A stretch of 64,000 nt of DNA, taken from Bdellovibrionales bacterium. Its GTDB lineage: Bacteria; Bdellovibrionota; Bdellovibrionia; Bdellovibrionales; UBA1609. This document shows, one piece after another, positions 12,001 through 24,000 of this stretch. The position numbers were made by a program. Location of the stretch: the NCBI GenBank assembly GCA_965219095.1, contig CBDCMT010000001.1:928001-992000 (forward strand), read 5' to 3'. Each line of letters begins with the position of its first letter. The first letter of the stretch is position 1.

Positions 12001-15000
12001 GTTTTGAGAGGCTTTAGGTTGTAGATTTTTATCATTAGGTAAAGAAAGAAGAGGGGAATCATAATCATAGGAAGACTTATGCTGAATATTTTTTACTCTT
12101 CTAGCTGTATCTGGAGGAAGAAGGCTAAAAGAGGGCTTTGGGTATTTTTTACCTTTGTGTCGAGCTTGATTTAACAAACCTTTAGATAAAGTAAGAGCAC
12201 AGGCTATGTTTTTTGCAGAACTCTGATGGCTTGATTTTTCTTGCTTCACCAGTTTGTTTCGGGAAACTTCGTTATTGGCACATTCCGATAAATACTCCGT
12301 ATCAACATTACCACAAACCTTTTGACACTCATTGATAGCTCTTGTGCAAGCTGTATGGTGTGAGTTTGTATCGTATCTTAGAACAGCAGAGTTCACAGCC
12401 CCTTGAGAGCAGGAAGCTAGAGTGCCCATGGTGCCTGCAGCAGAAAGAGCAGGGTCTTTGGAGAAGGTAAGCAACATAGCACCTAAGCTTCCTAGAGTGG
12501 GCATGATTTTAACTTCTGTGGCTTGGTTGAGAGCTTGAGTGAACTCTTCTCCGCATTGAGCATCGGAAGAACAGCAGTTTTGAGTTTCTGTGATCTTTTG
12601 TTGGCAGAGTTGTTGAGTGGTTGCCATTTTTTCGGTGTTTTCTATACAAACACCATCAGTAAGTGTTTGGTTTTCATCATCACAAACGCAAACCCCTTCT
12701 TTGCGTGAAGAATTTTCAGGACAAGAAAGAAAACAACTAATAGTCCCGTTATCAAAGTCGTCAGAACAAGCTTTATAACAACAATTACCTCTTTTTTTGT
12801 ACCCTTCTTTACAAACAGATCCGCTTGAATCAGGTTTCGAAAATATCAAAACACCGTTAGGGTCATGATGATAACCTGGACTACTGGGATCATTCATGCA
12901 CCTTGATATTACCATATTAAATCTTTCTCCCTCAGGACAGAAGTAGCATCCACTTTTTCCAAAACTTTCTTGAACTAAAAAAATACCCAAAAGAAAAAGA
13001 AGAAAACTTAAAATATTTATGAAAAAGTGCTGTTTTCTCTTTACTCTTCTATTTTTTGAAAAAATTCTATTATAAAACAAAATGAAGTTCATATAGTTTT
13101 TTCGACAAAAGTCTATAAAAACTTAAATGAAAGTGTTTCATTTTGATACAAAAAGACCCTCAAGATGACCTTGCTTTTTCGTAACTCGGTTATCTGACCG
13201 CCCTATCCAAGCTTAAATTTCTCTTATAAGTTTTTCTTAGAGGGAGGATTTTATGGAAGAAGGGATTAATTTCTGTAATTGGTATTATCTCAATTTTTCA
13301 TAAAAGACTCAGTACGTAACCCGAGTTTCGACTTTTTTCAGGACTAAAGGCTAGCTGATATAAACAAACATCAAATTAAATATAGAAAATAAATTGATTC
13401 CCTTAATTGATTCCCTTATTTGACAAGTTGATGTTGAAAAAACGTTCTGTTGTGGAGGTCAGTGATTGGAGTGTTAAAAGGAGAGTTTCATCTTGAGCAT
13501 TTCGCCATCGTAGCCCACAAAACTTTGTCATCAATCTTTTAGGTACTCTCATCTCGTACTTACTTAAAACCTAAAAAACCCTCCATTCAACTTAGAACTC
13601 AAGAACAGAGGCCTCTGAAAAATATATAAAAGTCAAAACTCGGGTTATGTACGTGGATTTTTTGCGGTTGGGTAGAGCGGAAAATCTATGCACCACTTTT
13701 TGAGCTGAAAAAAGAACAGTTTAGAAAGTTTAAGGCTTCTAAACAAAGGAAAACTGAACATGACGTATTTTTTTATTAAAGAGTTTAACAAAAATGTTCG
13801 GATGCCATGCGTTAACAATGTCGAGTTAATTTATTTTTGGATTTGGATTTTTTTAATGCTTTTTTCAATTGTTTTAAAAGTTGTGTTTTATGTGAATTTA
13901 ATGTAAAAAATTCATGTCTAGATAGGTAAGGAGAACGTGAATATGAGATCTATTTTTATTTATTTTTTGTTTTTATTTATGGTTCCTTTTTCCGTTCACG
14001 GTATAAAAGTAGGTACGTATTTCGTTGGCTTTGATTGGGTAAACTTTCATGAAGTGGATAAAAACCAACTCTATCGAGCAGCCCAAATGGATCCAAAGAT
14101 ATTGCAGGAGACTATAGAAGACTATGGCATTCAGACGGTAATAAATTTAAGAGGAGCAAAAGAACATAAGAAATGGTACCGAAAAGAGGTGCAAGTAGTG
14201 GAGGATACGGGTGTTGAGTATATTAGCATTAGAATGAGGGCAGGGACTCTTCCTAGAAAGGAAAACTTGGTGGAGCTTTTAGATGCATATAGGAGTGCTC
14301 CTAAGCCTATTTTAATTCACTGTGAGTCGGGAGCAGATAGAACAGGAGAAGCTGCAGCTCTTTACCAGATAGAACATATGAATATTAGCAAAAAAAAAGC
14401 TTCTAAGAAGTCCCTTTCTATGTACTATGCTCATATTGCTTTCCTTTGGCCAGCAAAAAAGTATTTTGTGGAAGAAGTGTATCAGGACTATAGGTGGGCT
14501 GTCGAAGAATATGATCCTTGTGCATACTCTTTTGCTCCTAGTAGTTGTGAGTGAAAACCTGTGAGCCTGTAAAGAATCGTTTTAAACTGATCTTTTTTCT
14601 AAAACTTCTTCTTGTTTGAAAAAAGATTTTAATCGTACTCTAAGCTTCTGAATGGCTTGAGCATGAAGCTGTGACACACGACTTTCTGTAACTCTTAAGA
14701 CTTGTCCAATTTCTTTTAATCTTAGTTCTTCGTAGTAATACAGAACTAAGACAAGCCTTTGTCTTTCAGGAAGTTCATTGAGTACTCTTGTAAGAATTCT
14801 TTGCAAAGCTGTCATATCAAGAGATAGATGAGGGTTACTCATCTTACAAACTTCTAAAATGCTCATAAGAGACTTTTTATCCACGTTGCTGTAGGTTGAA
14901 GGTTCATCAATTGATAAAATACTGATCGGCCTAACTGCATTAACTAGTTCGTAATACTGATCAAGACTTAAGTTCATATAATCAGCAATTTCTTGATCAG

Positions 15001-21000: not shown

Positions 21001-24000
21001 GATGATTTCCATAGAGTAATTTTTGTTTTTGAAAAGAGGAGGGGTAAAAACATTCTTTTTTTTCCAAAATAAGAGCAAAAGCGTTCCTAAGAGAAGAAAA
21101 GATAAGAGTCCAAAAAACTTAGACAAAAAAGAAGATTGCTTATGGTTTAAACTTTCAAGTTTTGAAGGTTTTTTTAGCTGTAAGGCTTTCTGTGATGAAA
21201 ACTCTTGTGAGGGGTTTTTTTTTGAAAGGACTTTTTTTCTGAACTTCTGACTGTTCTTTGTTGTTTTCCTAAACTTTGATTCCCCCGTTCTTTTTAAACC
21301 CTTTGTTGTAGCTAAAAGAGGTGCTGTAAAAGAACGGTTTGCACCTTGTTTAATAGCTATACGGAGCATATGAGAGCTAAAAGACAGATTGACTTTTCCT
21401 GAAAAATCTTTCGCTTGGAACTTTTTTTGATAAATGATCCGAGTCCTTAATATTTTTTTATTGAATTGATAAATATAAATACTTTTTACTTTGTCATTTT
21501 TTATTTTTTTTACAAACGGCTTCTTTAAGAAACCTCCAGGAATGTTTACCTGAACAGTCTGGTTAATGTAATCTACAGAAACTTTTTCAAAGTCTATGGT
21601 GTTATCGAAAATAAGCTCAGTAATAAACCAGTCTTTTTCTTGATAGGAATAAAAGTCTTCAAGATAGGATGTTTCCAAAAGAGAGGCACTTGACAAGGGA
21701 AAGTAGAAAAAGACTCCTAAAAAATATATGATGAATTTAAACATAAGCCCTCCTAGCTTTATTGGTTGTATTAAATTCTCTTAAAATTTTTCAAATAAAC
21801 TTGAACAATTTCTCCTTTTGTTAGAAACTGATTTAATCGTGTTTTTATTTTATCCTGTATGAGGTTGACTTTTCTTTCATTAGAAAAATCTGAAAAATCT
21901 GTTTTAGATAACATCATGAGAGAAAATTTTCTTATTTGGTTTTCTGTATTTTTAACCTCTTTTTTAGCAGAATCTTGATTTAAATAAAACTCTACATCCA
22001 AACGGGCTATTTTTTTTCCTGATGAGGAGTTTAAATGTAGTAAAAAATCAGACAACTCAAGTTTAGGACCCTTATGATGAAGTATGATAAAATCTTTCCT
22101 CAAAATTTGATCCGTAATGACAAGTTGCTCATAAGACACCGATCGATTCCACTGAAAGTAAGTTAAAATTAGAAACACAACAATGACTTGAGAGCTTAAG
22201 AAAAGAGAGAGCTTTTTTTTGTTCTCTGAATCGGATTTATTCTCTGAAGGGATGTTGTAGCCAGACTTATAAGCTTCTAGCTTAGAAGCTGTATTATGAC
22301 ACTCCACTTTATAAGCACAGTTATGGTTTTTTTTCATACACTCAAACCTCAATACTTCATTTTACTCTCCGTAGAGAAGAACTACCATAGAGCTTTCGGA
22401 CAAAATGCTTGATTTCTTTACAAAAACAGTCTCTTTGTCTTATTAAAATAGACTTTTGTGCCCGCTGTCTTAATTTTGACAAGCTTTCCTAATCAAGCTA
22501 TACTTTAGTCCTAGTGTTGATTCAAAAGACGTTTTTACATTTTCTTTTTCTCCTTTTTTTCTTTTTTTGTTCTTTTTGTCTAGGAGTGTACTGGAGGGAG
22601 CTTGTTCGACCCTCTCAAGCCACCTCATCTAAATCATATCCCCCCCAGTTGCAACAAAAGTTTAGCTCTTCTAAAACTAGGGCAGGTTTCTCAAAATTGC
22701 AAAAAAAATCAAAACCTCAAACCCATTCTCTTCAAAAGAAAAAAAACTATACCCTGCAAATAGCCTCTTATAGGGATGAAAGAGATGCTGTTTACCACAG
22801 TCTTTCGCTAAAGTCTCAAGGCTATACAGCGTTTTATAGAAAAGCCCTTATACGAAAAAAAACATGGTATCGTGTGTTTATGGGTTTGTTTGACCATTAC
22901 CAAGAAGCACGCACTTTTAAAAACAAACTTATAAGGAAAAATAAATTAAAGGAGGCTTTTGTTTTTAAACTTCATGAACCATCACTCTAAAAGCCTTTTT
23001 TTCGAAAACAAACTCAATTTAGCCCAAAACCAAGCTGTCTCTTGCATTGATGGCCCCCTTCTTGTTTTAGCAGGGGCTGGTTCAGGAAAAACAAGGGTTC
23101 TGACTTATCGTATGGCGGAAATCATCCTTAGGAAAAAAGCCTCTCCTACTGAGATTCTATGTGTCACTTTCACCAACAAGGCCGCAGAAGAGATGAAACT
23201 TAGAATTGAAAGTATTTTATCTGGCTTAGAGCTCAATTTACGTCAAAATCTCTGGGTGAGTACTTTTCACTCTTTTTGTTTTCGCATCCTACGGCAAACC
23301 ATTCACCTTATAGGCTATGATTCTAACTTTTTAATCTATGACCAAGCTGATCAGTTGAATCTTATTAAAACCTGCATGAAAGAATTAAGGATAAACACCC
23401 AAACCTTAGACCCTAAAAAAGTTCAAAGTTCATTACAAAAAGTAAAAAATTTAGGTCTGTCGCCTTCTTCAGGGCAGCTTTCCTATTTTATGAGCCACAG
23501 AGAAAAAATCGTTTATAACCTCTACGAACAGAAGCTCAAAGAATCACAAGCACTGGATTTTAATGACTTGTTGTTAAAGACTTATGAAGTCTTTAACAAA
23601 AGCCCCCAAACCTTAGAACACTATCAAAACCATTTTCTTTATATTATGGTTGACGAGTACCAAGATACAAATGCCATTCAATATAATTTACTCAAACAAT
23701 TAGCCCAAAAAAATAAGAACATCTGTGCTGTAGGAGATGAAGATCAATCAATTTACAGCTGGAGAGGTGCTGATTACTCTAACATCACAAATTTTAAAAG
23801 AGACTTTAGAGGAACAAAGACCATAAAGCTAGAGGAAAACTACAGGTCTTCTAAAAACATTGTAAGTGCTGCTAATGGCTTGATCTCTAAAAACAAAAAA
23901 AGAAGTGCTAAAACTCTATTCACTCATAATCCAGAAGGAGAAAAAATTCTTCTCTTTAATTTAAAAAATGAATACGATGAAGCCCGGTTTATTGCAGAGA

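Follow-up and report, generated by a model that had tools for sequence, protein, structure and literature searches.

A flagellar export gate kept after loss of the flagellum in a Bdellovibrionales bacterium: a candidate stand-alone FlgM exporter

Why a bacterium without a flagellum should keep the membrane gate through which flagellar proteins are exported is the question raised by a minus-strand operon in the 64,000-nucleotide stretch of contig C2 analysed here (the window), from a Bdellovibrionales genome. Its nine ORFs are contiguous and open with Pfam matches, as the first-pass annotation had described, and the export-gate genes for FliP, FliQ and FliR and those for FlhB and FlhA are present with that for FliO in flagellar gene order. 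The features, with two genes lying outside the window, are as follows.

22394..22420, minus strand: sigma-28-type promoter-like site with TAAAG and CCGAAA separated by 16 nt, some 57 nt upstream of the fliL ATG
21771..22337, minus strand: fliL, 188 aa from ATG; fast-evolving, and kept by gate-less relatives too
20788..21744, minus strand: fliO, 318 aa; a FliP assembly chaperone, with fliM and fliN deleted from between fliL and fliO
20085..20786, minus strand: fliP, 233 aa; MTSF motif and C-terminal charged residues retained
19802..20077, minus strand: fliQ, 91 aa; conserved Q-x-x-T-Q-x-x-E ... P-K stretch retained
19089..19805, minus strand: fliR, 238 aa, starting at about Salmonella residue 12
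18428..19087, minus strand: flhB, 219 aa, four membrane helices only
16653..18431, minus strand: flhA, 592 aa; membrane domain, FHIPEP loop and D1-D3 retained, D4 absent
15521..16672, minus strand: flhF, 383 aa; N-terminal 60 aa and GTPase domain retained (P-loop intact, DxxG motif without its Gly), middle shortened; flhG deleted
14582..15373, minus strand: fliA (sigma-28), 263 aa, about 60% identity to flagellated relatives
C2:1413298-1414248, minus strand, outside the window: fliF, 316 aa, TM1-RBM1-RBM2-linker-TM2-short tail
C2:1439340-1439621, minus strand, outside the window: flgM, 93 aa, with a GTG start and a strong ribosome site

The deletions of fliM, fliN and flhG from within the operon emerge from comparison with flagellated relatives. 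Elsewhere flgM lies 129 bp from a transglycosylase gene that in relative G003 flanks the flgF-J block, and fliW adjoins rsmE. Profiles built from relatives (1 to 40 sequences each, a single one for FliK) were run over all six-frame ORFs of at least 30 aa; they found all 13 retained genes, FlhB included at E 1.3e-6, and no match at E<=1 for FlgB, C, D, E, F, G, H, I, J, A, K, L or N, nor for FliE, FliG, FliH, FliJ, FliK or FliN. The same search gave best matches of E 0.23 for FliM and 0.045 for FliC, and neither gene was found. Flagellin_N has 0 matches here versus 10 in G003, and MotB_plug 0 versus 5. The FliI profile hit two F1-like proteins and a third, weaker match, which the first-pass annotation calls Rho, and no flagellar or type III ATPase. 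MotA-like matches proved to adjoin ExbD/TolR-like genes and the MotB-like one to be a short Pal-like lipoprotein; the stator reading was rejected for both. The absence of rod, hook, filament, C ring, ATPase and stator reported earlier is thus borne out over the six-frame ORFs of the genome, and FlgM is the only known flagellar export substrate left. As to an injectisome, the single FlhA-family match in the genome is closest to flagellar FlhA, a type III ATPase was not found, and the operon holds no secretin, needle or translocon gene.

The survivors named by the first-pass annotation are all present. Since fliA, fliL, flhF-like genes, csrA, fliW and a short flgM survive also in gate-less lineages, only fliOPQR-flhB-flhA-fliF is special to this genome; fliA, fliL, flhF, fliW and csrA are uninformative on the gate, and the description of a bare export gate within a trimmed FliF ring holds good. 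With two contigs and 94% completeness, it could be supposed that the flagellar genes sit in the unassembled 6% or that the short forms are long-read errors. That is extremely unlikely: the losses fall inside contigs, several within the operon, with ancestral neighbours retained, so that incompleteness cannot account for them. Short-read contig X1, possibly from the source sample, matches window positions 13985-22532 without differences, as does X2 over the flhA and flhB stops (four runs, all from one study), and independent assemblies yield the same short proteins in a sister lineage. Besides, a rod could not be built with a FliF that lacks RBM3 and an FlhB that lacks its C domain.

Where the survivors have been cut is informative. 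FlhA aligns to Salmonella residues 28-584 and stops 13 residues on, so that D4 (584-682 in Salmonella) is missing, in line with the C-terminal loss first noted; the FHIPEP loop and the DGASKF-RGD stretch are conserved. FlhB, 19% identical to its relatives, with a shortened loop, ends about 21 residues short of the NPTH cleavage site, and no separate C domain exists elsewhere in the genome, which confirms the annotated loss of the autocleaving part; FlhB is the top match of its predicted model, but a weak one (E 1.5). For FliF the claim of a protein trimmed to its membrane part needs amending: the far C-terminus is gone, but RBM1, RBM2, both membrane helices and a short tail are kept, and the internal RBM3 is lost as well. 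Salmonella FlhA truncated in D4 allows FlgM export to the periplasm (PMC5916509, citing earlier work), and in a rod-hook-less strain an FlhB that stops at 258 or lacks 270-383 makes FlgM export independent of FliK while blocking an early substrate (PMC13344023). By alignment, the cut points of FlhA and FlhB coincide with those of these laboratory locked-late mutants, and the genome has neither the cleaved FlhB domain, FlhA D4, rod, hook nor FliK. The likeness extends, as far as these accounts of the mutants go, to the absence of a filament, to FlgM as the remaining substrate and to secretion that reaches the periplasm only. The mutants, in contrast, have a single cut, need raised gene dosage and still possess the C ring, FliHIJ, FliE and an untrimmed FliF; here the two cuts occur together in nature, are fixed in a clade and go with the loss of all those parts.

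That a clade is involved overturns the earlier view of this genome as the sole case. Sister FlhA proteins (P0002/P0121, 587 aa) and a sister FlhB (P0126, 202 aa) end at the same columns as the proteins described here, and a sister FliF (P0123, 320 aa) has the same build, with an identical tail motif after TM2; identities are 57% for FlhA, 46% for FliF and 35% for FlhB, and the 118 other FlhA among the matches listed are all 694-700 aa. Sister FlgM and FliF lie on contigs other than those of sister FlhA and FlhB, and a single-organism origin is not implied. FlhA has a long stem branch, and of its 157 changed conserved columns 76 carry the same residue in both lineages; the trimmed gate has a single origin and its kin are not independent cases.

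Comparison of the sister protein sequences points to purifying selection on the gate in a sister lineage. The two FlhA agree at 202 of 301 family-conserved sites versus 129 of 277 others (p 7e-7), and in FliF (p 0.007) and FlhB (p 0.049), too, changes fall preferentially outside conserved sites. Identity within the clade is 0.68 for the FlhA membrane domain, versus 0.72 among flagellates, and falls much lower in the cytoplasmic domains (0.41-0.55) and linker (0.11). Evolutionary rates of all the gate proteins are 2-4 times those among flagellates (two controls, 1.25-1.5). These rates, together with the lost plug of FliR, the degenerate FlhB loop and FlhF motif, and the roughly 23% of the genome made up of multi-copy IS-like DNA, would suit the slow decay of relics on which selection is weak or absent and which have been spared through their position upstream of the essential fliA, which the operon feeds. 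Yet the two FlhA lineages, about 1.5 changes per site apart, have kept their frames open, while in neutral simulations 0 of 300 were still open at 10% protein change; fliF stands alone, distant from fliA, and is intact in both lineages; and the corresponding genes ahead of fliA have been deleted in gate-less genera. The late-stage decay that the first-pass annotation had offered as one option is improbable because the cuts are shared by sisters at least 43% diverged, the frames are open and change avoids conserved sites.

What the gate might be kept for is suggested by FlgM. An N-terminus of start plus K[VI] and an inner helix [VL]x[LVM]SxxA occur in 18/18 flagellated loci and here (as start-K-I), and by eye in both sister FlgM sequences, versus 0/10 gate-less genomes from 7 genera. 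This N-terminus, tied to the presence of the gate, would be the export signal of FlgM. The homologues P0131/P0132 are 67% identical, and over the first 12 residues 10 are identical between the FlgM described here and P0131, where 105 flagellate pairs share at most 8. As FlgM persists in 10 genomes without any gate, once at full length (G043, 99 aa), its retention as such does not require export. A modelled FliA-FlgM complex scored above its controls (0.59 versus 0.00 for the best of three; the mark is reached by 51 of 78 solved pairs and 2 of 108 mismatched ones), with runs agreeing in at least 71% of contacts and partner pLDDT of at least 60; the model lends weak support and shows likeness only, because the like complex is a textbook pair.

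FliA is present in 95/95 family genomes, and in B. bacteriovorus it is reported to be essential and the master attack-phase regulator. Sigma-28-type sites of at least 14 bits in 1827 upstream regions number 41 sense versus 9 antisense and 3 shuffled, giving some 40 targets predicted by motif, including a pilin, pilus ATPases and surface proteins. The site before fliL has a leave-one-out score of 10.9 bits, reached by 15 of 2000 shuffles. A sigma-54 motif precedes fliL in 10 of 11 flagellated relatives and is missing here, though RpoN and 8 sigma-54 sites are present elsewhere in the genome; by motif, the gate operon has exchanged its sigma-54 site for a sigma-28-type one. Many of the sigma-28-preceded genes encode unknown secreted-looking proteins, and these, together with the long FlhA stem branch and its many shared new residues, could mean that the gate now exports new non-flagellar, prey- or host-directed proteins into the periplasm, as proposed for Lysobacter enzymogenes, whose flagellar export system is reported to affect secretion of antifungal proteins. 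Lysobacter, though, retains FliI and FlgD, both missing here; there is no rod, no ATPase and no candidate substrate gene within the operon, and by eye many targets start with ordinary signal-like leaders. Such re-use, which would be compatible with FlgM export, is rather unlikely.

The evidence points instead to FlgM as the substrate, and to a regulatory job over new secreted cargo. We lean, somewhat, towards a remnant that acts as a stand-alone FlgM exporter and sigma-28 switch, possibly with positive feedback. FliO would help assemble FliP5Q4R1, which the membrane part of FlhB and the D4-less FlhA would join inside a FliF ring reduced to RBM1-2. By analogy with the Salmonella mutants, loss of the FlhB cleaved domain and FlhA D4 would fix this gate in late mode, so that rod, hook and FliK ruler would not be needed, and the proton motive force would push FlgM into the periplasm. 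Its removal would free FliA to transcribe the predicted targets and lead into an attack-phase-like programme. FliA probably also drives the gate operon, as judged by motif, and since sigma-28 would then drive the operon of its own pore, the switch would be self-reinforcing, or bistable. The evolutionary logic may be that, because every family member keeps FliA, loss of the flagellum forces either a weakened or lost FlgM or a retained route for its removal, which in this lineage was the pore.

Salmonella can export in the absence of ATPase or C ring once proton motive force or substrate is increased (PMC4230889). Export without the ATPase is inefficient, which counts against an exporter, as does the state of the pore itself. 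FliR, without its first beta strand and Trp9, has a plug region of 36 aa versus 43-44 aa in 40/40 homologues (7-8 aa short); the mature N-terminus of FliP is 7 aa shorter than in 7/7 relatives, and its methionine loop reads MMA, a form found in 0/40 homologues. Plug and gasket changes of this kind make the Salmonella pore leaky for ions and lower fitness, yet export continues when the plug is lost. Also counting against export is the absence of FliE, by which the periplasmic gate of Salmonella is opened; loss of the first FliR strand may bypass the need for it, or may reflect decay of a surface that is not used. The locked-late state of Salmonella also required Flk loss and raised FlhDC, and a gate permanently in late mode would need another timing signal.

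The plug and gasket changes would fit a leak or a non-transporting pore, and so a complex that exports nothing and serves as a membrane scaffold or sensor, holding FlgM or FlhF at the pole, signalling assembly or ion flux to a regulator, or forming a platform of the CORE type for membrane tubes. All six CORE genes are present, and the Bacillus CORE is described as acting without FliI, FliF or flagellin (PMC6456723); the Campylobacter gate and MS ring are reported to signal to a two-component system, and the FliF tail motif shared by both lineages fits as well. The Campylobacter signal requires FliG, however, which is absent, and no clear orthologue of the relatives' flagellar sigma-54 activator is present (46% at best, versus 61% in G009); both cuts at the late-lock positions and the conserved FlgM N-terminus are left unexplained. 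We regard such a role as unlikely.

Set beside known systems, the FlgM exporter envisaged here is plainly derived from the Bdellovibrionales flagellar export apparatus, whose origin and gene order it shares and among which its nearest FlhA relatives are found. It differs in having no axial substrates, ATPase, C ring, stator or FlhG, in its trimmed FlhA, FlhB, FliF and FliR and in its sigma-28-type site in place of sigma-54; the features of flagellar type III systems that it lacks are NPTH with the FlhB C domain, FlhA D4, FliH/I/J, FliG/M/N and whole FliF. The CORE platform (FliOPQR, FlhB, FlhA) has the same six genes kept without most flagellar parts, and gate-only sets are noted for Myxococci, Chloracidobacterium and Succinatimonas in the text of PMC6456723; here, in contrast, FlhA and FlhB are cut, FliF, FlgM and FliA are kept, and the system is known from genes alone. 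Lysobacter enzymogenes OH11 is likewise a non-flagellated predator with gate genes, but FliI and FlgD are described as kept and toxin export is proposed (PMC7688988, PMC7277350). The non-flagellated Legionella oakridgensis (Tlapak 2017), reported to have kept FliA-FlgM after flagellum loss, resembles rather the gate-less relatives found here. The flagellar remnant of Chlamydia pneumoniae, another non-flagellated organism with a developmental cycle, is similar in size and build (FlhA 583 aa, FliF 342 aa with two membrane helices) but keeps FliI and a separate full injectisome, and FlgM goes unmentioned (PMC2830194). Its FlhA would, from its length, lack D4, C. trachomatis is reported to have sigma-28, and this may be a convergent case.

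A type III system reduced to a pure gene-regulation device, that is a natural late-locked pore without ATPase or C ring which exports only an anti-sigma factor and works as a bistable developmental switch, seems to us a shade short of an even chance. The gate is a natural test of the minimum for export, having neither ATPase, C ring nor FliE, no FlhB switch domain or FlhA D4, and no complete FliR plug. It is a natural test too of a 2026 model in which removing inhibitory parts suffices for the early-to-late switch, both removals being fixed in this clade. As a system of ten genes and one substrate it could be rebuilt in another host. Where earlier proposals for the persistence of gate genes after flagellum loss were nanotubes or toxin export, FlgM removal would offer a concrete reason, and one that connects the gate with the sigma factor in charge of the Bdellovibrio life cycle. 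If true, this would be the smallest natural type III secretion system, and would demonstrate that the FlgM checkpoint can persist beyond the flagellum.

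What is left of the flagellar regulon in this Bdellovibrionales genome (3.11 Mb in two contigs, C1 and C2; 94% complete, 34% GC) is the operon of an export gate, FliOPQR with trimmed FlhB and FlhA, together with fliF, flgM, fliW and csrA, as the first-pass annotation had it. Profiles built from the family and run over all six-frame ORFs recovered all 13 retained genes and no gene for rod, hook, ring, junction, filament, C-ring, ATPase or stator. In flagellated relatives the operon also has fliM, fliN and flhG. Apart from fliW and csrA, which likewise lie away from the gate operon, the elements concerned are:

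within the window (C2:928001-992000), minus strand: fliL-fliO-fliP-fliQ-fliR-flhB-flhA-flhF-fliA, nine open genes, the gate operon
22394-22420: sigma-28-type site upstream of the gate operon
C2:1413298-1414248: fliF, away from the gate operon
C2:1439340-1439621: flgM, away from the gate operon

The flagellar deletions are internal to their loci, with ancestral neighbours still flanking them, and short-read contigs (four runs, one study) match the window, both early stops (flhA, flhB) included. On these grounds an assembly gap is rejected, and artefact is given almost no credence. The reads differ from the window by a single substitution over 11.4 kb, which leaves too little variation to test for polymorphism; the 2-base gap seen at 16707 in one X2 contig of depth 5 coincides with a loose end and was set aside. 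Named homologues are mostly from Bdellovibrionales. An injectisome origin was also rejected: the gate is no injectisome and derives from the flagellar export apparatus, yet lacks several of that apparatus's defining features. A search for chemoreceptors was empty, but equally so in a flagellated relative (G003), and is uninformative.

Elsewhere in the genome, multi-copy IS-like genes make up 1081 of the 2908 crude gene calls (about 727 kb, 23% of the genome), with IS copies near fliF and csrA. At the fliW/rsmE locus (C2:1973718-1974224, C2:1972960-1973717) an intact fliW persists with no flagellin present and away from csrA, and the neighboring rsmE is split into two frames. Adjoining csrA is a gene for a protein of 1849 aa whose leader is pilin-like and which contains internal repeats (C2:1601762-1607311), a tolQ-R-A-B-like operon is present in two diverged copies (C1:625587-628734 and C2:1431346-1434538), and a 384-aa ORF at window 25391-26545, without Pfam match over the cut-off, ends in several tandem 7-residue Asn/Arg-rich units.

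The trimmed FlhA had been thought unique to this genome, but a protein search revealed a sister FlhA, P0002 (587 aa; cluster mate P0121), that is 57% identical and stops at the identical alignment column; the remaining 118 matches listed are 694-700 aa. The sister FlhB (202 aa), found on contigs with the same two lengths as those of the sister FlhA, ends at the same column as its counterpart. The sister FliF (320 aa, 46% identity) shows the same internal loss of ring domain RBM3, and its short tail matches as well. Both lineages share these cuts, which are old. In a quick version of the FlhA tree the three trimmed FlhA proteins form one branch, with support 100 and a long stem, the lineages being about 1.5 changes per site apart; the place of the clade in the tree is unsure because of the long branch and odd composition. 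No further trimmed FlhA was found in 109 family genomes or among the matches listed from 280 genomes of the order, the short frames in G074, G088, G119 and G035 running off contig ends. Searches for the sister DNA found none in assembled genome contigs (3 unrelated loci matched), in metagenome contigs (0 matches to a clade-specific motif; none of the clade among the best 80 of 586 loci, with top identity 48%) or in viral contigs.

Judged from sequence comparison, the gate is under selection despite fast evolution, because the lineages agree more often at sites that flagellates conserve than at other sites (FlhA, 202/301 and 129/277; FliF, 69/128 and 68/178; FlhB, 26/57 and 43/141) and because the flhA frame stayed open in 0 of 300 neutral simulations at 10% protein change. 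The cuts shared with the diverged sister proteins, the open frames and the sparing of conserved sites make late-stage decay, one of the options first raised, unlikely. Gate proteins do evolve at 2-4 times the flagellate rate, the value for two control genes being 1.25-1.5 (AspS, UvrD and RecA were dropped as controls, having too few relatives), and decay is given little chance.

The reading that on balance we favor, its steps being inferred, is that the gate is an exporter of the anti-sigma factor FlgM and acts as a sigma-28 switch. FlhA aligns with Salmonella residues 28-584 and then ends, and its cytoplasmic domain D4 is described as Salmonella residues 584-682, with D4 truncations, in earlier work cited there, exporting FlgM to the periplasm during hook-basal-body assembly (PMC5916509). 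A structure model still predicts the FlhA fold for D1-D3. FlhB ends about 21 residues short of NPTH, and profiles over six-frame ORFs detected no separate C domain. In Salmonella lacking rod, hook and flk, ending FlhB with a stop at residue 258 or deleting 270-383 is reported to lock the gate in late mode, with an FlgM fusion protein in the periplasm, FliK dispensable and an early substrate blocked, the lock depending on raised FlhDC (PMC13344023). The gate here may work like these mutants. Counting against FlgM export are that FlhB is barely recognisable (19% identity; fold match of the model weak, E 1.5), that the trimmed gate is of one origin only and that the sister genes are not tied to one genome.

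A possible leak of ions counts against it as well. FliR begins at about Salmonella residue 12 and mature FliP is 7 residues short at its N-terminus; these ends are described as a cap sealing the gate until FliE assembles (PMC12403130), and FliE was not found by family profiles over six-frame ORFs. The FliR plug region has 36 residues, compared with 43-44 in 40/40 homologues, and the FliP loop reads MMA, as in 0/40 homologues. In Salmonella, plug loss is reported to let ions leak with flagellar function intact (PMC8239009), and export free of FliHIJ or the C-ring is described as possible once proton motive force or the amount of substrate is increased (PMC4230889). That the gate exports nothing and serves as scaffold or sensor is unlikely, though the likeliest of the rivals.

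FlgM is the sole known substrate left. Its gene starts with GTG, with a strong ribosome site upstream. Two ENA homologues (P0131, P0132) share 67% identity with it and 78% with one another; their contigs are not linked to the sister FlhA. A start followed by K[VI], with an inner [VL]x[LVM]SxxA helix, is present in 18/18 flagellated loci examined, in this genome and, by eye, in both ENA homologues, and in 0/10 FlgM-like proteins of FlhA-less genomes (G043, G091, G093, G018, G095, G024, G027, G031, G278 and G268; no FliP in the eight searched). Ten of the first 12 residues, which are variable among flagellates, are identical with P0131, as against at most 8 across 105 flagellate pairs. This N-terminal region is presumably the export signal, without a role in sigma-28 binding. 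A FliA-FlgM complex model scored 0.59 (best control 0.00), weak support for a textbook pair.

In gate-less lineages FlgM is shortened or lost, with no match over the cut-off in the family's other gate-less genera, and here whole FlgM and pore are both kept. FlgM does persist in genomes that have no gate, in one of them (G043) at full length, which counts against the exporter reading. That the gate exports a new cargo is quite unlikely. G043 (L140, C10:746000-765000; L134; 4.3 Mb, 96% complete) is a mirror-image remnant, having fliL, fliM, fliN-like, short flhF, flhG, fliA, flgG-like and the full-length flgM, without FliP, FlhA or flagellin. In G268 (L190, C2:188221-188337; 100% complete, two contigs), lacking FlhA and FliP in an otherwise flagellated genus, FlgM is already shortened.

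FliA was present in 95/95 family genomes searched, flagellated or not, 1.2-Mb non-flagellate genomes among them. In Bdellovibrio bacteriovorus a FliA motif is reported ahead of 92 of 140 attack-phase promoters (PMC3627812), and FliA drives the Tad pilus operon, its deletion being unobtainable (PMC5430801). With a matrix seeded on that motif, 41 sigma-28-type sites of at least 14 bits were found in 1827 upstream regions, as against 9 antisense and 3 shuffled. Twenty targets picked from the list include a type IV pilin, two pilus-type ATPases, an Ig-repeat protein, ClpP, RNase E/G, a kinase and response regulators by Pfam match, six having none. Three members of a family of about 500 aa each stand behind a strong such site (window 11578-13092, C2:1786916-1788436 and C1:600622-602190), the window copy being cysteine-rich and without Pfam match. 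As gate-less lineages retain fliA, often with fliL-like, flhF-like, csrA and fliW genes, retention of these was rejected as evidence for the gate. Many family genomes (loci L140-L151) have fliL-like/flhF-like relics upstream of fliA, and retain csrA, fliW or a short flgM where the flg locus used to be.

Ahead of the gate operon, 10/11 flagellated relatives have a sigma-54 site and this genome has none, with RpoN and 8 other sigma-54 sites present; several gate-less genomes retain a sigma-54-like site at that position. The sigma-28-type site here scores 10.9 bits with a matrix built without it, a score reached by 15/2000 shuffles. In G016 a sequence resembling this site before fliL was rejected, as it proved to be the opposite gene's -35 box. 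None was found upstream of flgM, fliF, fliW or csrA, and 27 upstream regions from gate-less genomes gave none either, the highest score there being 5.5 bits. If real, this wiring would be positive feedback. As an exporter of FlgM, the gate would assemble inside the FliF stub, perhaps positioned by FlhF, and be in late mode from birth; FlgM would pass into the periplasm and freed FliA would raise pili, surface proteins, FliA itself and more gate, with gate assembly or membrane potential as candidates for starting or ending the cycle.

Gate genes without flagella are described in CORE (PMC6456723), Lysobacter (PMC7688988, PMC7277350) and Chlamydia; in C. pneumoniae, FlhA of 583 aa and FliF of 342 aa with two membrane helices (PMC2830194) are nearly the trimmed sizes found here, possibly by convergence. 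A survey of 11,365 genomes classed 4% as partial sets (PMC12199754). A literature search, with few subscription journals among its sources, turned up no naturally occurring gate that is retained to export FlgM; supplements (Table S2 of PMC6456723; PMC12199754) could list similar genomes. The gate remnant is real, a changed form of a known machine with a proposed job that is specific and testable.
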